Source of the DNA: Planctomycetota bacterium
GTDB taxonomy: Bacteria > Planctomycetota > JAJSAM01 > JAKLKS01
Length of the DNA stretch: 44,510 nt
Assembly: GCA_023150535.1 (NCBI GenBank)
Contig: JAKLKS010000003.1
Span: 1-44,510 of the forward strand
Reading direction: 5' to 3'
Position 1 is the stretch's first letter. Each line of letters starts with the position of its first letter. Both the position numbers and the translations under genes were made by a program. The notes below the pieces were generated by a model. That model did not search any database and had not been told where the DNA came from. It saw only the letters and a program-made list of their open reading frames with translations. Below, in pieces: positions 3,473-37,297 of this stretch.

Positions 3473-3511
3473 GGCGGCTCCTTTCCGGTCCCCGGCGGGG
3501 ACCCCGTTCAG

Positions 3512-3531
3512 AACATACCGTTTGGTATGTT
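3512..3531. promoter_or_regulatory. candidate TetR operator
   Basis: aacatacc-gttt-ggtatgtt, 8-bp arms, in the divergent methyltransferase/tetR intergenic region. TATGTT reads as a -10-like hexamer on both strands. A second palindrome accgtacggt lies at 3585-3594. Confidence 0.4.
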
Positions 3532-3610
3532 ACGGGCGGGGCGACGGGCGTCAAGGGGATTCCGCCGGAGCGAAGTGGAAGGGTACCGTACGGTCTGGTA
3601 CCCTGTCCCC

Positions 3611-4222
3611 ATGAGCGATCGCGGCGCGGCCACCCGGGAGCGCATCCTCGACGCCGCCCACCGCCGCGTGATGGACCGGGGCTTCGCCGCCACCCCGCTC
3701 GACGCCGTCCTCGCGGACGCCGGGGTCACCAAGGGGGCCTTCTTCCACCACTTCGAATCCAAGGCCGACCTCGCGGAGGCGCTGGCCCGGCGCTACGCCG
3801 AGGGCGAGGCGGCGGCGCTCGAGGGCCTCTTCCGCCGCGCGGCCGCCCTCTCCGACGACCCGCTCCAGCGGGTGCTCCTCGTGGTCGGCCTCCTCGCCGA
3901 GGCGGTCGAGGGGGCGGGGGAGGGGGATCCCGGCTGCCTCCTCGCCTCCTACTGCTACGAGAAGGACCTCATGACCCCGCCGGTGCGCCGGATCCTGGGG
4001 CAGGCCCTCGGGGGGTGGCGGAAGCGCTTCGGGGCGGCGCTCCGGGAGGCGGCCGCCGTCCACCCGCCGCGCGCGCCCGTGGACTTCGATCTCCTGGCCG
4101 ACCACTCCAACGCGGTCATCGAGGGGGCCTTCATCATGGCCCGGGTCCTCGGGCGGAAGGGAGTCGTCGCCGCCCACCTGCGGGAGTTCCGGCGGTACCT
4201 GGAGCTGCTCTTCGAGGGGTAG
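3611..4222 (+). CDS. TetR/AcrR-family transcriptional regulator
   Basis: 203 aa. N-terminal HTH 'TRERILDAAHRRVMDRGFAATPLDAVLADAGVTKGAFFHHFESK'. Confidence 0.9.
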   Translation: MSDRGAATRERILDAAHRRVMDRGFAATPLDAVLADAGVTKGAFFHHFESKADLAEALARRYAEGEAAALEGLFRRAAALSDDPLQRVLLVVGLLAEAVEGAGEGDPGCLLASYCYEKDLMTPPVRRILGQALGGWRKRFGAALREAAAVHPPRAPVDFDLLADHSNAVIEGAFIMARVLGRKGVVAAHLREFRRYLELLFEG

Positions 4223-4231
4223 GTGGCGGCG

Positions 4232-10770: not shown

Positions 10771-11499
10771 CTAGGCCAGGGCTTCCAGCAGATGGCGGAT
10801 CTCGTCGTCCACCTCCTCCGGGGAGCCCACGGTCTCCGCGATGGCCCCCCGGAGGAGGTCCCGGTAGCGCCGCCGCAGGCGGTGGAGGGCGACCCTGACC
10901 GCCCCCTCGGACAGGCCGAGGCGGGCGGCGGCCTCCGCGTGGGAGGGGGGGTCGCCGGCCGCCGCCAGCCAGGGGCCCAGGGTCTCGAAGAGGACGGCCC
11001 GCTCCCCGGCGTAGTCGGCGCGGAGGTCCGCGAGCACCCGGTCGAGGAGGGCGAGGGCCCAGCGGCGCTCGTAGATCCTCTCCGGGGTCCGGTCGTCCGC
11101 CGGTTCGGCGAGGTAGCGGCTCTCGCCGTCGGAGAAGTCGAGGGGGAGGACCGCGCCTCCGCCCCGCTTGAGGGCCCGGGCCCTCTCCCGCTCCTTCGAG
11201 GCGAAGTGGCGGAAGGCGGCGAGCAGGAAGGTGCGGAACCGACCCCGCGCCGGGTCGGCGGCGGCGATGCCCTCCCGCTCGAGGAGGTCGGCGAAGAACC
11301 CCTGCACGAGGTCGGCGGCGTCGGCGGGCGCGGCCCCGCCGCGGCGGGCGAAGGCGTAGAGCGGGAACCAGCAGTCGCGGCAGAGGGTCTCCAGCGCCGC
11401 CCTCCCCTCCGTCCCCTCCGCCGCCCCGGCCGCGACGACGAGGCTCCACCGGGTCGTGCGGAAGCGGGCGGAGCCGGGCGGGGTGGCGGGGGAGGTCAA
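10771..11499 (-). CDS. ECF-type RNA polymerase sigma factor (kinase-associated, ECF43-like)
   Basis: 242 aa from TTG 11499, which overlaps the kinase stop as TTGA. N-terminal 'TRWSLVVAAG', region 2 'DLVQGFFADLL', region 4 'SHAEAAARLGLSEGAVRVALHRLRRRY'. Confidence 0.85.
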   Translation of the reverse strand: MTSPATPPGSARFRTTRWSLVVAAGAAEGTEGRAALETLCRDCWFPLYAFARRGGAAPADAADLVQGFFADLLEREGIAAADPARGRFRTFLLAAFRHFASKERERARALKRGGGAVLPLDFSDGESRYLAEPADDRTPERIYERRWALALLDRVLADLRADYAGERAVLFETLGPWLAAAGDPPSHAEAAARLGLSEGAVRVALHRLRRRYRDLLRGAIAETVGSPEEVDDEIRHLLEALA

Positions 11500-23602: not shown

Positions 23603-24147
23603 ACCGCTCCGAACCCGCCGCCCGGTGCTACGCCGAGGCCGTGCTCCAGCTCGCCAAGGAGAAGGGCACGCTCGAGGCCACCATGGACGACCTCCGGAAG
23701 ACCGCGGAGGTGCTCCACCGGGACTCCGTCATCTGGTCGCTCTTCACCTCCCCCCGGGTCGACCGGGCGCTCAAGGAGAAGCGTCTCCTCGGCGCCTTCC
23801 GCGGCCACGTGGGCGAGGAGGTCATGGGGCTCCTCGTCGTCCTCGTCCGCAAGGGGCGCGAGGCGCTCTACGACAACGTCGTGGACTACTTCGACCGGCT
23901 GAAGGACGTCGAGCAGAGGAGGGTGCACGTCCACCTCGTCTCGGCGAAGCCGGTGGACCCGGGCGTGAAGGCCGCCGTCGAGCGGATCGTCCGGGACGCC
24001 TCCGGGAAGGACCCCGTGACCCACGAGAGGATCGACCCGGCGCTCCTGGGCGGCCTCGTGGTCCGGGTGAACGACGTGCTCGTCGACGGAAGCCTCAGGA
24101 CGCGGCTCCGGGCGCTCCGCGGCCGCCTCGTCGGGGACCGCCGCTGA
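23599..24147 (+). CDS. atpH: F1 ATP synthase subunit delta (OSCP)
   Basis: 182 aa from TTG 23599, overlapping the atpF TGA. '[13 protein letters not shown]…[17 protein letters not shown]'. Confidence 0.85.
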
Positions 24148-24172
24148 ACCGCGCCGCAACAGGGAGACTCCC

Positions 24173-31199: not shown

Positions 31200-31980
31200 T
31201 TCGCCGCCAGGCGTCCCCGGCAGGAGTGATCCTCCGATCACCGTCGTCGCCCATCTCCCTCGCCTTCCAGAGGAGCGCCCGCAGATCCACCCCGGGGAAC
31301 GAGTGGAGCAGGCGGAGGCGCCGCTCCGCGGCCGCGGGATCCCCGCGCCGCTCCCCCGCGATCACCTCCGTCGCCCGGAACTCCGCGATGCGGACGAGCC
31401 TCCCGGCGGCGAGGCAGCCGCCCCCCAAGACGCAGGCCGCGAGGAGCGCCATGGCGAGCGCGGGCCCCGCCCCGAGCCGATCCCGCCCGTGGGCGAGCGC
31501 GCGCAGCCCCGCCCCCGCGAAGACGGCCGCCGTGAGGAAGGGGAGGAGGCCGAGGAGGCCGATCCCGAGGACGAGTGCTCCCATGAGGCTCGCGGGGAGG
31601 AGGACCACGGCCGTCCCTCCGGCGAACAGGGCCCCGAGTAGCAGCGGGCCGGCGGCGACGGCATGGGCCCAGCCCCCGCGGCGGCGGAAGGGAAGCCAGG
31701 CGAGGAGGGCCGCGATGCAGGCGAAGGCGAGGATCGGCGTGTAGGGTCGGAAGGGCAGCACGCCGCTGGCGTCCCCGAGGAGTCCCCCTGCGATGGTCGG
31801 GAGCCAGTGGAGGTCGAGGTGGAGGAGGAGGGCCGGGACGGCGGCCCCGAGGAGGAGGTCGAAGGAGAGCGGCGGGTTGGAGTCGGGAACGGGCAGGGGG
31901 AGGTCCCGCCAGGACCGCCACGGCCAGCGGAGTCCGCGGGGAAGGGGCGCCGCCGGCGCCGCCTTCTCCGCCTCCCCCAT
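31165..31980 (-). CDS. polytopic membrane protein with soluble C-terminal tail
   Basis: 271 aa from ATG 31980, with several hydrophobic helices. It lies 9 nt downstream of the radical SAM gene on the same strand. Confidence 0.6.
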   Translation of the reverse strand: MGEAEKAAPAAPLPRGLRWPWRSWRDLPLPVPDSNPPLSFDLLLGAAVPALLLHLDLHWLPTIAGGLLGDASGVLPFRPYTPILAFACIAALLAWLPFRRRGGWAHAVAAGPLLLGALFAGGTAVVLLPASLMGALVLGIGLLGLLPFLTAAVFAGAGLRALAHGRDRLGAGPALAMALLAACVLGGGCLAAGRLVRIAEFRATEVIAGERRGDPAAAERRLRLLHSFPGVDLRALLWKAREMGDDGDRRITPAGDAWRRITGLDFVEEWD

Positions 31981-33824: not shown

Positions 33825-34091
33825 CTACCGGCCGAAGAGACCCCGGGACTGATGCGCGGAGCGGGAGGACCGGAGGGCCGCGAGAATGTCGGGCATGGGC
33901 TCCCCCGTGGCGGTCCGTCGCCAGGCCGCGGGAAGCGGAACCCGCGCTTCCTCCAGGGCGGCGATGTCTCCCTCCTCGAGGAACCTCCGCCCGCCCTTCA
34001 TCCGCAGGGGGAGCCTTCCTTCCCGGATCCATCGGTGGAGGGTCCCGGCGTTCCGGTGGAGGAGGCGGGCCGCCTCGGGGATGGTGAGCAT
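33825..34091 (-). CDS. excisionase/MerR-like helix-turn-helix DNA-binding protein
   Basis: 88 aa. 'MLTIPEAARLLHRNAGTLHRWIREGRLP'. Confidence 0.6.
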   Translation of the reverse strand: MLTIPEAARLLHRNAGTLHRWIREGRLPLRMKGGRRFLEEGDIAALEEARVPLPAAWRRTATGEPMPDILAALRSSRSAHQSRGLFGR

Positions 34092-34145
34092 GGGGCCATC
34101 ATGCCAGACCGCCGCCGGAATCCCCGGGACGGGGTGGCCGGCTGC

Positions 34146-34610
34146 CTACAGCCCCTCGCGCCGCTCGTCCTCGCGGAAGACGGCGACGATCTCCTCGGGG
34201 CTCCTCGCCTCCGCGAGGGCGCGCTTGGCCTTCTCCTGGTTCAGCACGCGCGCCACCTGGGCGAGGGCCCGGATGTGGGGGCCGGATTCGTCGGGGTGGG
34301 AGACGAGGAGGAAGAGGATGCGGCAGGGCTCCCCGTCCACGGCCTCGAAGGCGAGGCCGCCGGGGCAGGTGGCGAGGGAGGCCATGAGGCGGGGGACCGC
34401 CTCGGTCTTGCCGTGGGGGACGGCGACGCCGCGGCCGATCCCGGTGGAGAGCACGGATTCCCGCTCGAGGACGGCGCGCACGACCTCGGCGGCGCCGTTC
34501 CCCCCGGGGAGGGGCAGGAGCGAGACGAGTTCCTCGATGGCCTCGCGCTTGGAGGAGGCGCGGAGGCCGATGCGGATCTGGCTGGCGGGGAGGAGTTCGG
34601 AGAGGCGCAC
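34146..34610 (-). CDS. ptsN: PTS EIIA-Ntr-type protein
   Basis: 154 aa. 'STGIGRGVAVPHGK' phospho-His motif. GTG start with GAGGG upstream. Confidence 0.85.
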   Translation of the reverse strand: MRLSELLPASQIRIGLRASSKREAIEELVSLLPLPGGNGAAEVVRAVLERESVLSTGIGRGVAVPHGKTEAVPRLMASLATCPGGLAFEAVDGEPCRILFLLVSHPDESGPHIRALAQVARVLNQEKAKRALAEARSPEEIVAVFREDERREGL

Positions 34611-34804
34611 GCGTCACCCTCGGGGCGGGACGGGGCCGGAGGATTCGTCCCGGAGGGGGAATGGTAGCCCCCGGGGAAGGGGGCGGCGGACGAATCGGGA
34701 GGGGGGTGTCACGGGCGGGAGGGGGCGGCCGGCGCCCCGTGAGGGCTTTCCGCCGGCACGGTCCGTGGAGCGGAAGGTGGGCGGGGAGCGGAAGTGTGGA
34801 GTGG

Positions 34805-35860
34805 GGGCAAGGGCACCGTGGCTGAGCTCGGTGGTCCCCTTCAGGGTCTTCGGTGCAGCGGGTTGCGCACCGCCGTCGCCGGCGACGCGCCTCCCCTCCT
34901 GGTCTTGCCCTGCCTCTCGGAGCTTCCGCGTCCTGCACCTAGCCGCGTTCTGGTTCGCGGCACCCTCCACGCCGTTCCTCCGGCCTCGAGGTCTTCGATG
35001 CACGACACCGTCCGGGACCGCGGTCCCGGCTGCTCCCGCAGGCTTGGGCGTCCCTCCAGGGTATGACCCTGGCTGCCCGTGCCGCGACGGCCTTCGCCGT
35101 GCGGCGACCCTCCTGGGGTTCCGTCCCCCTACAGCGGTCACGACCTGCCGGAGTCCGCTCTTCCCGGAGTTCCCGACCTCCGGCACGGTCCGCCCTCGGC
35201 GTTTCGCACGCCCTCGACGGTTTGCTCCTCCAACAGGCTCCCGGCCCTTTTCAGGCCGGTGCCGCTCCTGGGGTTCTCCCTACAGAGCCTTGCTCCTCCT
35301 CGGGAAGCCGTGCGCCTTTCGGCGCCGATACCCTCCTGCCGTTCACAGAAACCGCGGTCCTCCACTCTGAGGTTTTTCTGGAAGATCACGGTTCTCCGCA
35401 GCTTCAGGGTCTTGCTCCTCCCGACGAGTCCGTACCCCGCGGGGCTGCCGCCCCGCAGCCGGGCCGATGCTCTCTTGGGATTGGGCCTCTCCAGGGCTCT
35501 CGCCGGAATGCCATGGCCAGCGCTTCCGCCGGCCTTCCCGCCCGCACTTCGGCTTCGCCGCGCCTCGCTAAAGACGGGACGTCGCCTGTGCCTCCGGGCT
35601 TCTCTGCACGATCCGGTCAGGGGATCCGTCTCCGGACCCCCGGCCCTCCTGAGGTTTTCCACCTGATCTCGCCCTAGGTGCCCCCTTAAGGCACCCAGGC
35701 GTTTCCGGCAGGCACTGGGCCCGCCGGCGCGAGGGGGGTTTCCCCCCTGGGCGGCGGGACCCGAAGGCCCCACCCACCCGACTCGCTGCCTGGTTGTCAA
35801 AGAGGCACTTCGGACAGGCGAGACCCCGGTGACGAGTCCCAGAAGCGCCCTTGCCCACCG
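34805..35860 (-). ncRNA. candidate large (~1.05 kb) structured non-coding RNA or giant structured ptsN leader; family not recognised
   Basis: No credible ORF. Purine-rich on the minus strand. Promoter TTGACG-16-TAGACT lies just upstream. A 13-bp helix joins 35856-35844 to 34817-34805. More than 10 perfect local hairpins, including UUCG/GAAA/GAGA loops. Internal 10-12-nt exact repeats. Confidence 0.4.
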
Positions 35861-35866
35861 GGGGAG

Positions 35867-35894
35867 AGTCTACAACGCGGGGAGACTTCGTCAA
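35867..35894 (-). promoter_or_regulatory. near-consensus sigma70 promoter facing the ORF-free region
   Basis: Minus strand TTGACG (35894-35889), 16-nt spacer, TAGACT (35872-35867). A 60% A+T block at 35911-35950 sits in the UP-element position. Confidence 0.45.
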
Positions 35895-36093
35895 GGCGGA
35901 TTCCGTCCACAATCTGTTTCCTATCAAGGAGTTATGACGGATCTAACCTGTGGATGAGCGGGTGGAGAACTCCCCATCCCCCTGCTCCTCAAGGGGATGC
36001 GAAGTTGTGGAGAGAGTGGATAACCGGCCGCACCCGGCCGATGAAAGGGGGACGAAGCGAGGCGGACGGATGCGGAATCCCCGTGGAAGGATC

Positions 36094-36118
36094 GGATCTC
36101 CACAGGCTGTGGAAATCC
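36094..36118. promoter_or_regulatory. 25-bp near-palindrome, candidate dimeric regulator site
   Basis: ggatctccaca-ggc-tgtggaaatcc, 11-nt arms with one mismatch. Part of a cluster of eight GTGGA/TCCAC cores (35906-36113). Confidence 0.4.
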
Positions 36119-36295
36119 AGGGGCCCCGGTCCGAAGGCCCTTGAATCCTGCGCTGGAAGCACTATTCTTAGGGGGTCTTACCGGATCCGACCCCAGATAT
36201 GGCGGCTAGGACCCGTCCGAAAAGGCGGATGCTCTGAGGGCCGCCCTGCCGCCGGGGTCGGGGACGGAATCGGGACGCCCCGATGGAGGCGAACC

Positions 36296-37297
36296 TTGGG
36301 CGCTCCCTTCCTTCCCTTCCTCCGGACGCAGGGCGGCCGGCGCCTCCTTCCCGCGCTCCTCGCCCTCCTCCCGCTCCTCGCCGCCTGCGCCTCCACGGAC
36401 CCCGACGCGGGCAGGACCTGGCAGCCCGCGGACGAGTCCTCCTGGGCGACGACGGCGCGGGCCCTGGCGGCGGACCTGGGGGCCACCCTCGTCGCGGAAC
36501 CCGGCACGAGGACCCTCGTCATCGAGGGGAGGGGCGGCCGCATCCTCTTCCTCGACGGCACCCGCATGGTGACCGTGGACGGCCAGCGCCTCGAGGCCTC
36601 GACCACGCTGCAGTTCGGGGACGGGGACGTGGCCCTGGCCAACGAGGACGCGGTGCGGATCTCCCAGGCGTGGAAGGAGGCCGTCTCCCGCAGGGAGGCC
36701 AGGGAGCGCGCCCTCGCCGCCGCCGCCGCCCCGCCGCCTCCCTCCCGCGCCCCCCCGCGGGGCGACGCCGTGGGGGACCCCGAGTGGAACGTCCCCCTGA
36801 AGCGGGACTGGGAGGGGATCCTCATCCACCACTCCGCGACGGAGGGCGGGAACCTCGCCAAGTTCGACAAGTTCCACCGCGAGGTGAACGGGTGGCTCAT
36901 GGTCGGGTACGACTTCATCATCTGCAACGGGGACGGGGGGCCCGACGGCCTCGTCCAGACGTCGGAGCGGTGGACCACCCAGATCCAGGGGGCCCACGCG
37001 GGCAAGGGCCTCAAGAGGTACAACGACCACTGGGTCGGCATCTGCCTCGTCGGCGACTTCAGCCGCGAGCGCCCCACGGCGAAGCAGATGGCCTCTCTCC
37101 GCCGCCTGGTCCGCTACCTCCAGGACCGCTGCGGGATCCCCGACGCCAACGTGCGCACCCACCGGGACGTCCGGGACACGGACTGCCCCGGGAAGCACTT
37201 CCCCCTGGGGGAGGTGCTCCGCGCCGGGGCGGGCCCGCGCGGGGCGGAGGCCCTGCGATCGGGGGCGGGCCTGCGCGCCTCGCCCCGGGGGAAGTAG
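36296..37297 (+). CDS. lipoprotein N-acetylmuramoyl-L-alanine amidase (Amidase_2/PGRP domain)
   Basis: 333 aa from TTG 36296, with GGAGG 6 nt upstream. Lipobox 'LLPLLAAC'. 'ILIHHSAT…GYDFII…HAG…NDHWVGICLVGDF…H.D…CPG'. Confidence 0.8.
   Translation: MGAPFLPFLRTQGGRRLLPALLALLPLLAACASTDPDAGRTWQPADESSWATTARALAADLGATLVAEPGTRTLVIEGRGGRILFLDGTRMVTVDGQRLEASTTLQFGDGDVALANEDAVRISQAWKEAVSRREARERALAAAAAPPPPSRAPPRGDAVGDPEWNVPLKRDWEGILIHHSATEGGNLAKFDKFHREVNGWLMVGYDFIICNGDGGPDGLVQTSERWTTQIQGAHAGKGLKRYNDHWVGICLVGDFSRERPTAKQMASLRRLVRYLQDRCGIPDANVRTHRDVRDTDCPGKHFPLGEVLRAGAGPRGAEALRSGAGLRASPRGK

Follow-up and report, generated by a model that had tools for sequence, protein, structure and literature searches.

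A structured RNA gene of about 1 kb upstream of ptsN in a Planctomycetota contig and its relatives in metagenomes

What occupies the 1,685-nt gap (34611-36295) between ptsN and an Amidase_2 lipoprotein gene in contig JAKLKS010000003.1 of a Planctomycetota bacterium (assembly GCA_023150535.1)? The window, i.e., the whole 44,510-nt stretch that was analysed, has no convincing open reading frame (ORF) within this gap, and an original prediction made from the letters alone placed there a large (~1.05 kb) structured non-coding RNA (ncRNA) on the minus strand, with its own promoter and paired ends. Conservation in relatives, covariation, and the ends of short homologous contigs bear this out. The interval 34801-35858 on the minus strand is, with hardly any doubt, the stand-alone gene of an RNA that is expressed and under structural constraint, one member of a large family outside Rfam.

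Conservation, fold and covariation

Retrieved contigs carry the labels L001, L002, and so on, and among them the ptsN gene of the window has a graded series of orthologues. The gap is 99.8-100% identical in the same-species contigs (L001-L010), and the order amidase-gap-ptsN is kept in four further lineages, where ptsN is 84% (L011/L014), 75% (L017), 74% (L016), and 65% (L019) identical to that of the window. The element is conserved in relatives as the prediction implied, being syntenic in these four lineages with 79-82% DNA identity of the gap (82% over 1,332 nt in L011, 79% over 1,274 nt in L016). Conservation is patchy upstream, solid from the -35/-10 hexamers on, and unbroken down to GGUGCCCUUGCCCCCAC, after which it vanishes; this sharp 3' edge coincides with the 3' strand of a terminal helix. 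Orthologues of ptsN that are 65-96% identical and have the RNA upstream are present in the window species, L011, L016, L017, and L019, but not in L015, in which ptsN (77% identical) has another upstream neighbour and a 186-nt gap with no RNA. Counting all genomic contigs of the near family, the RNA adjoins ptsN in the window species, L011, L016, L017, L019, L034, and L067.

The RNA and its parts are as follows (all on the minus strand):
34801-35858, minus: ncRNA gene of ~1,055 nt, 5' end predicted from the -10 hexamer; contig ends lie at 35851-35844 and 34804-34801
35845-35856, minus: terminal closing helix, 5' strand (GGGCAAGGGCGC), pairing with 34805-34816 in 100% of cells
34805-34816, minus: terminal closing helix, 3' strand (GUGCCCUUGCCC), with transcript-like contigs ending 1-4 nt beyond it
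35692-35844, minus: 5' domain, a hairpin plus a three-branch domain including the UUCG and G6-AAA-C6 hairpins (helices 2-9)
35486-35654, minus: module D-A, closed by CCUC-AGG-AGGGC / GCCCU-GGA-GAGG (helices 14-22)
35277-35480, minus: module D-I, closed by UCCC-AAG-AGAGC / GCUCU-GUA-GGGA (helices 23-31)
35126-35273, minus: module D-II, closed by CCCC-AGG-AGCGG / CCGCU-GUA-GGGG, the most conserved module
35189-35227, minus: near-invariant 39-nt core GAGCAAACCGUCGAGGGCGUGCGAAACGCCGAGGGCGGA inside D-II, in every member retrieved
34836-35118, minus: module D-III, closed by CCCC-AGG-AGGGU / ACCCU-GAA-GGGG (helices 39-53)
34908-35047, minus: nested D-II-like module inside D-III (17.2 bits, E 6e-5 with the D-II covariance model R2)

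The fold was derived from alignment A3, which contains 17 near-family sequences with a mean identity of 87%. RNAalifold reports 325 pairs on A3, 89 of them with at least one compensatory double change; in the final model, two competing RNAalifold helices were swapped for the closing helix of the original prediction and a local hairpin, which gives 326 pairs in 53 helices. In this model 97.8% of cells are paired (94.0% in shuffles), double changes occur in 91 of the 326 pairs (33.0 ± 3.7 in shuffles and at most 26 in slid registers), and the covariation score is 0.179 (0.107 and at most 0.051, respectively). None of 500 shuffles reaches any of these measures. Because the structure was taken from the same alignment, the slid control is generous, and the shuffle control of pair counts is more telling. 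Covariation, on which the original prediction could not draw, is clearly present, with 91 doubly changed pairs against 33 expected. Single-sequence folding gives similar results: the minus strand of 35126-35480 alone folds into the consensus shape (z = −4.65, vs −2.59 for the plus strand), and the helices of D-I are reproduced by the minimum-free-energy fold of the window sequence alone.

Regarding the individual helices, the proposed closing helix that brackets ~1,050 nt holds, since 35856-35845 pairs with 34816-34805 in every sequence, with one covarying position (pair 21:1071 is CG in 7, UG in 7, and UA in 1). Nine of the ten local hairpins listed originally are part of the covariation-supported consensus. 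The tenth, CCAGGG-UCAUA-CCCUGG (35072-35056), is not: its columns pair long-range instead, and one of the helices involved shows a compensatory change from G-C to A-U in three sequences. Several helices of the 5' domain have compensatory changes, e.g., GGGGCC-UUCG-GGUCCC vs GGGGUC-GCAA-GACCUC in L016. In helix 16 of D-A, which is the GAGA hairpin of the original prediction, 6 of 9 pairs have double changes, and helices 43 and 49 of D-III have 8 such pairs each.

The body of the RNA consists of four similar three-way-junction modules, enclosed by long-range helices and the terminal helix. Each module is closed by a stem with the common internal loop 5'-CC(C/U)C-ANG-AG...CU-GNA-G(G/A)GG-3', and the junction strand GAGCAA(A/G) recurs three times. 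The covariance model of D-II, R2 (156 positions, 44 pairs, explicit structure), gives weak second matches within the same RNAs, and therefore the modules look like old duplications. The internal repetition is one of structural modules, not of sequence, and Tandem Repeats Finder reports no tandem repeats inside the RNA. The 5' domain is specific to the near family, and nhmmer matches of distant members start at model position ~200 or later.

For D-II, R2 scores 79-182 bits at all 105 primary sites. Over 103 distinct sequences 95.2% of D-II cells are paired (78.6% in shuffles), double changes occur in 39 of its 44 pairs, and its covariation score amounts to 0.44 (0.155 in shuffles, at most 0.089 in slid registers), with none of 500 shuffles reaching any measure. 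The underlying alignment is fitted to the model, but A5, a plain MAFFT alignment, also shows these compensations, e.g., CCGGCC/GGCCGG vs GCAGGA/CCUGC vs GCGGGG/CCCGC. The 3' half of the core, GAAACGCCGRGGRCGGA, lies outside the pattern used for retrieval and is equally conserved.

As for coding potential, the gap is flanked by the following genes, the nearer of which is separated from the RNA by a spacer:
34146-34610, minus: ptsN (EIIA-Ntr type, PTS_EIIA_2; PF00359, E 2.5e-29), downstream neighbour on the same strand as the RNA
36296-37297, plus: Amidase_2 lipoprotein gene, flanking the gap on the other side
34611-34800, minus: spacer between the 3' end of the RNA and ptsN, C-rich and poorly conserved

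The large non-coding gap is real, with the coding run of ptsN ending at 34610 and the amidase gene starting at 36296. The ORFs listed inside it had been judged spurious, and they are indeed not genuine: no gap ORF has a Pfam match, and A3 has no codon periodicity, the fraction of variable sites per codon phase being 0.51, 0.49, and 0.42. That the gap represents a decayed protein gene or a small-protein gene thus has next to no probability. The long stop-free stretches in several frames, which might speak for such a gene, are as expected at 72% G+C, and they shift in frame and position from relative to relative; moreover, 210 of 238 internal indel runs in A3 are 1 nt long, and there is no third-position excess. 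The minus strand of 34801-35858 is 59% purine.

Probable transcript ends, promoters and the wider family

Eight near-family contigs of 1,001-1,054 nt (including L038, L111, L119, L133, L139, L147, and L149) hold the RNA alone. On the model, the first position covered is 15-22 in seven of them and 62 in the eighth, and the last is 1059-1064 throughout, which in window terms corresponds to about 35851-35844 and about 34807-34802. The 5' ends of seven contigs therefore lie no more than ~15 nt from the predicted start, and the 3' ends of all eight no more than ~5 nt from the end of the RNA; the contigs stop at the closing helix ~190 nt before ptsN. A further scaffold, L028 (NZ_JALGRD010000036.1, 1-1154), belongs to the assembly of an unrelated isolate, Stutzerimonas marianensis, and is 100% identical to window positions 34804-35850; apart from an internal 106-nt duplication, its 1,154 nt contain nothing besides the RNA. 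It is almost certainly a contaminant from an abundant transcript, and because the contaminant is exactly one transcript, carry-over of a very abundant RNA or complementary DNA explains it best. Two other contigs are chimeras of a kind that only RNA-derived assemblies produce. In L049 (776-1252) the RNA is joined to a bacterial 23S ribosomal RNA (rRNA) fragment (191 bits), and in L154 (1227-4748), which is 'viral' according to IMG/VR, to an ORF for a dicistrovirus-like polyprotein with RNA-dependent RNA polymerase and capsid, i.e., to an RNA virus. The 'viral' label of L154 says nothing about the RNA itself.

Upstream of the RNA the following elements are present:
35889-35894, minus: -35 hexamer TTGACG, TTGAC(G/C) in all five lineages
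35867-35872, minus: -10 hexamer TAGACT, TA(G/C)A(C/G)T in all five lineages
35949-36116, no strand assigned: array of six TCCACA(G)/DnaA-box-like sites, a candidate activator-binding region upstream of the RNA promoter

The proposed minus-strand promoter, TTGACG-16 nt-TAGACT, is the sole sigma-70-like site in 34000-36600 (shuffles give 0.1), and it is conserved across five lineages. The near-family consensus is CTTGAC(G/C) followed by TA(G/C)A(C/G)T, with a 16-nt spacer in the window; the -10 hexamer reads TAGACT in three lineages and TACACT or TACAGT in two. The same scan of 34000-36600 gives no terminator-like site. The original base counts are exact (24/40 A+T at 35911-35950, C+T of 41/60 at 35221-35280 and 37/60 at 35401-35460). 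However, 35911-35950 is not the most A+T-rich 40-mer in the window, as was claimed, being exceeded by 28/40 near 1183-1192.

Six matches to TTATCCACA with at most two mismatches lie within 170 nt at 35949-36116, in comparison with 0.61 per kb in the window; two of them are within one mismatch, and the boxes have a TCCACA core. This is also the least G+C-rich part of the gap. The position of one box, ~55 nt upstream of the -35 hexamer, is kept in L011, L016, L017, L019, and L034.

Many distant members have a different promoter. At their DNA loci a sigma-54 -24/-12 element, TGG[CT]A[CT]-N5-N[TC]GC[ATC], precedes the RNA (e.g., TGGCACAAACGTTGCT in L092 and TGGCATATCCGTTGCT in L027). Of 42 distinct upstream regions, 17 have this element at a fixed position, 506-573 nt before the core, in comparison with a background rate of 0.0135 per 180 nt. 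It is carried by L023, L027, L030, L031 (both copies), L035, L048, L051, and L080, as well as by L092, L107, L121, L126, L131, and L146; the upstream regions lacking it belong mostly to transcript-like, tandem, or chimeric contigs. At 60-150 nt upstream of the element there are 4-7 direct repeats of (T)TCACAG, CCCACAG, or TCCACAG, the first box often being TTATCCACA-like, and the array is followed by A+T-rich DNA. This is the classical arrangement at sigma-54-dependent promoters, with activator sites and a bend ahead of the -24/-12 element. Distant members that carry the element can be classed as sigma-54-dependent RNA genes, but the window copy, having a sigma-70-type promoter, cannot; a sigma-54 promoter denotes a shared promoter class, not a shared RNA family. 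Because similar arrays precede the sigma-54 promoters of distant members, including both copies in L031, the boxes at 35949-36116 are read, from sequence, as putative binding sites of a regulator (an enhancer-binding protein or DnaA). The cluster could be an activator array, a means of DnaA-dependent control, or part of an origin. As oriC it was rejected, with no dnaA/dnaN in the window and no gene-orientation switch at this place.

In total, >100 homologues were retrieved, the distant members being ~0.85-0.95 kb long and forming at least 21 clusters at 70% identity. A 20-base core pattern yielded homologues in six contigs of metagenome-assembled genomes (MAGs) named Myxococcales, Polyangia, and 'Deltaproteobacteria', as well as L016 (titled 'uncultured Planctomycetota bacterium'), scaffold L028, and four chance matches. 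A slightly looser pattern gave at least 120 matches in the metagenome collection, and 88 of those listed were confirmed by nhmmer. Pattern matches in Klebsiella, a Gammaproteobacteria MAG, Alkalispirochaeta, a Planctomycetales MAG, and the viral contig L153 have no model match and were rejected as chance. On MAG labels, the family spans two phyla, Planctomycetota and Myxococcota. For the ATP synthase beta of the window, the nearest relatives with a name come from 'Planctomycetota bacterium' MAGs (87% and 82%), and the phylum label rests on the names of these matches and on MAG titles.

In distant cluster 6 the extreme 5' and 3' ends pair as well, with different, covarying sequences: GUGCUCGGCG/CACCGGGCAC vs AUGUCCGGCG/CGCCGGACAU, and CUGGCGCGC/GCGCGCCGG vs UUGGCGCGU/ACGCGCCGG vs CCGGUACGU/ACGUGCCGG. 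End closure is therefore a trait of the family. In this cluster GUUU follows the closing helix.

Tandem or duplicated gene copies occur in L031, L083, L143, and L135. In L031 a distance of 1,766 nt separates two copies, both of which have boxes and a sigma-54 promoter of their own; L083 contains a head-to-tail pair of 919-nt units that are 81% identical, and L135 an inverted pair. Terminal repeats are imperfect in L143, L123, L064, and L096, and exact in L045, L066, and L145 (123 nt, units of 901-906 nt) and in L124 (226 nt); the units of these head-to-tail arrays or circles span 843-919 nt overall. An exact end overlap of fixed length is what a de Bruijn assembler outputs for a cycle, and the templates of these contigs are therefore either circles or tandem copies without differences. 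Where the two units of L083 meet, the 'closing' helix takes the form of a local hairpin, made by the 3' strand of the first unit with the 5' strand of the second.

Among the neighbours examined, there is no protein gene that accompanies the family throughout. Distant members lie next to genes for PepQ, a LivK-like binding protein, an amidohydrolase, GNAT, PurF, a SerA-like dehydrogenase, and a cNMP-binding protein, with no ptsN among them, and many of these genes concern nitrogen or amino-acid metabolism. The ptsN product is a component of the nitrogen phosphotransferase system, and ptsN sits in the rpoN operon of Proteobacteria. A link of the family to sigma-54 and nutritional signalling is circumstantial.

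Known RNA families and possible functions

Rfam 15 gives no matches at gathering score in the whole window. At E ≤ 10 on 34500-36400, only chance-level matches fall inside the RNA (at most 17.7 bits vs thresholds of 52-80), and in 20 family loci the only family matched is the 23S fragment of chimera L049. The statement that the family is unrecognised stands, with no match to OLE, GOLLD, ROOL, HEARO, raiA, RNase P, transfer-messenger RNA (tmRNA), signal recognition particle RNA, 6S RNA, rRNA, or group I/II introns. ARAGORN finds no transfer RNA (tRNA) or tmRNA in the window, and ahead of the 3' strand of the closing helix there is no sequence resembling a T arm. Full-text searches of the literature returned no description of the RNA, which is a limited search rather than proof of absence.

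To our knowledge, few bacterial ncRNAs longer than ~500 nt besides rRNA have been described. With its size, many covarying helices, and long conserved stretches, the RNA falls into the descriptive class of large ornate bacterial ncRNAs in the sense of the Breaker lab (>~300 nt), and its family joins a small set of orphan large bacterial RNAs without detectable likeness in sequence or structure to any of them. OLE of Bacillota is also a large, intricately folded, stand-alone ncRNA with long conserved stretches, abundant and of unknown biochemical function; it presumably works as a ribonucleoprotein (RNP). In contrast to the ~1,055-nt RNA with four similar modules in MAGs labelled Planctomycetota or Myxococcota, OLE is ~600 nt long and has oap-like linked genes, which are absent here, and its Rfam model gives no match. 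GOLLD and ROOL, which are typically associated with phages or prophages and lie near tRNAs, are likewise orphan large ornate RNAs known mainly from metagenomes; the present RNA is of the same size order or larger, but it is chromosomal, syntenic, and not near tRNAs, and again has no Rfam match. HEARO and the IscB omega RNA are also large structured intergenic RNAs, but here there is no IscB, TnpB, or transposase neighbour and no Rfam match.

Among smaller regulatory RNAs, GlmY/GlmZ and Qrr resemble distant members in that upstream sites and A+T-rich DNA precede a -24/-12 promoter. GlmY/GlmZ have sigma-70 or sigma-54 promoters in different species, which is paralleled by the two promoter types within this family. 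These RNAs are, however, 100-200 nt long and unrelated in sequence, i.e., five to ten times smaller. CsrB and RsmX/Y/Z are similar in their repeated modules, upstream-activator-dependent promoters, high abundance, and multiple or tandem copies in some lineages. However, that class is defined by GGA sites in loops, where this RNA has the ANG/GNA internal loop, and its hairpins are short in comparison with three-way junctions of 150-290 nt; the best match from the Rsm clan, RsmW, reaches 17.7 bits vs a gathering score of 52. A literal CsrA sponge was considered and rejected: CAGGAG occurs five times but in internal loops, and it reads CA[G/U/A/C]GAG across relatives. With a variable first G in 'AGGA', the motif does not qualify as a CsrA site.

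As for function, the explanation that we rather favour as a whole is that the stand-alone gene encodes a trans-acting, multivalent scaffold or sponge; the scaffold or sponge mechanism taken by itself is a tentative proposal, drawn by analogy. The RNA would act in trans, not primarily as a ptsN leader. It would be abundant and regulated, and its repeated modules would bind several copies of a protein or other partner. Tandem gene copies may raise dosage in some lineages, and trimming or termination at the foot of the closing helix would produce the 3' end. This mechanism is preferred because of the four like modules, activator-dependent promoters, and amplified gene copy number in some lineages, and because such features parallel Csr/Rsm-type RNAs in logic, not in motif.

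Several points weigh against this explanation. There is no known partner protein and no protein gene that stays beside the RNA in all lineages, the recurring motif is not a known protein-binding site, and one core of such extreme conservation is commoner in ligand pockets or active sites than in simple sponges. The invariance of the core is itself inflated, and partly forced, by retrieval of the family with a pattern inside D-II. Both RNA ends are predicted from the -10 hexamer and contig ends, and the metatranscriptome origin of the short contigs is inferred from the contig ends and the chimeras. The segments of the closing helix can also pair as 191-199/1068-1076 (according to RNAalifold) and as 18-26/57-66, but L034 disrupts the alternative pairing (C-A) and retains the closing helix (U-A). 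Finally, the RNA is not followed by a terminator, and no separate promoter can be recognised for ptsN, which begins 190 nt downstream; read-through may therefore feed ptsN in the window lineage.

The conserved core and the sheer extent of structure are reasons to consider a ribozyme, an RNP enzyme, or a self-assembling RNA, with the D-II core as the active site or interface, which we regard as a serious though less likely possibility. The RNA is large and densely structured (326 pairs, 53 helices), >100 sequences share the near-invariant core, even at positions that the retrieval pattern did not cover, a constant protein partner is not seen, and the four-fold pseudo-repeat together with end closure could serve assembly. 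GOLLD, ROOL, and OLE are reported as RNA-only homo-oligomers by cryo-electron microscopy (PMC12286853). However, the RNA has no known catalytic motif, it is not matched by any ribozyme or intron model of Rfam even at E ≤ 10, and no processing junction or substrate has been identified. A bolder form, which we hold with similar reserve, makes the core a catalytic or ligand-binding centre, or the RNA a closed particle, and the family an undescribed, kilobase-sized ornate class, widespread and strongly expressed in soil bacteria labelled Myxococcota and Planctomycetota and activated by an enhancer-binding protein with sigma-54, or with a sigma-70 variant that has the same upstream boxes. Four duplicated modules would then surround a unique near-invariant core, and some lineages would make the RNA as head-to-tail multimers or true circles.

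According to the fallback of the original prediction, it is a long structured 5' leader or a processed co-transcript of ptsN, controlling it in cis. It does lie on the same strand 190 nt upstream, with no terminator-like or other promoter-like site between, the arrangement is kept in five lineages, and in L011 the spacer is only ~70 nt. This reading is nevertheless not supported and appears improbable: >90 homologues in other lineages have unrelated downstream genes, the ptsN of L015 has no RNA, the transcript-like contigs end at the closing helix, and the spacer is not conserved; a near-family copy without ptsN is also present in L154, but this contig is a chimera. The constant position upstream of one gene class that marks riboswitches and cis-acting leaders is absent. 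Still less probable is a mobile or selfish DNA, such as a satellite or a miniature inverted-repeat transposable element (MITE), with the closing helix as its inverted repeats. Indeed, the ends are 12-nt inverted repeats, and some distant members form 850-920-nt head-to-tail repeats or an inverted pair. However, there is a single copy in the 44.5-kb window, it occupies the same genomic position in five lineages, where its divergence keeps pace with that of the neighbouring genes, a conserved promoter belongs to it, and RNA-derived contigs contain the molecule. Compensatory change in 91 pairs is not accounted for by selection on DNA ends, and instead of the dispersed near-identical copies of a MITE or insertion sequence, members diverge by 12-21% with compensatory changes. 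A viroid-like or obelisk-type replicon was rejected, since chromosomal MAG contigs of 8-191 kb carry the gene together with flanking genes, although the exact 123-nt terminal repeats of some distant members would fit circles as well as identical tandem copies.

RNase P, tmRNA, group I/II introns, OLE, GOLLD, ROOL, and HEARO have each turned out to be mechanistically fundamental or a lasting puzzle. The present RNA is larger than any orphan class, its >100 homologues in at least 21 clusters suffice for a well-supported structure, and its abundance in soil RNA is sufficient for assembly as a separate contig, while the sigma-54 and box-array promoter in part of the family points to a specific signal. 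RNA family libraries thus miss a major transcript of common soil phyla, which matters for metatranscriptome annotation, as illustrated by the chimeric contigs and the contaminant scaffold.

Spacer and neighbouring sequences

The spacer at 34611-34800 is unalignable between lineages and varies in length from ~70 nt (L011) to ~230 nt. Its fold has z = −1.59. It is C-rich and G-poor (e.g., CCCCCACUCCACACUUCCGCUCCCCGCCCACCUUCCGCUCC), and it could be a Rho-loading site.

On the other side of the gap, directly upstream of the amidase gene, a near-threshold match to the int-alpA RNA motif is located at 36199-36267 on the plus strand (33.9 vs 35.8 bits, E 9.7e-5). It lies outside the RNA and on the opposite strand, and the sequence is kept in L016 and absent from L011.

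The claim that every other gap in the window is at most ~350 nt was not confirmed. A crude coding map shows 570-760-nt stretches without an ORF of high G+C at third codon positions (3473-4231, 10775-11495, and 23603-24172), and these give no Rfam match.

Regarding the genes beyond ptsN, a small HTH_17/excisionase-like gene (33825-34091, minus strand) between ptsN and a radical-SAM gene is present only in the window species, and in L011, L014, and L017 a GNAT gene directly follows ptsN. Between the GNAT and radical-SAM genes of the window lies a 708-nt segment (31260-31967), at the edges of which a search for terminal inverted repeats found none. It is shared with L007 and missing from the same-species contigs L001, L002, and L005, where the junction has a 9-nt overlap.

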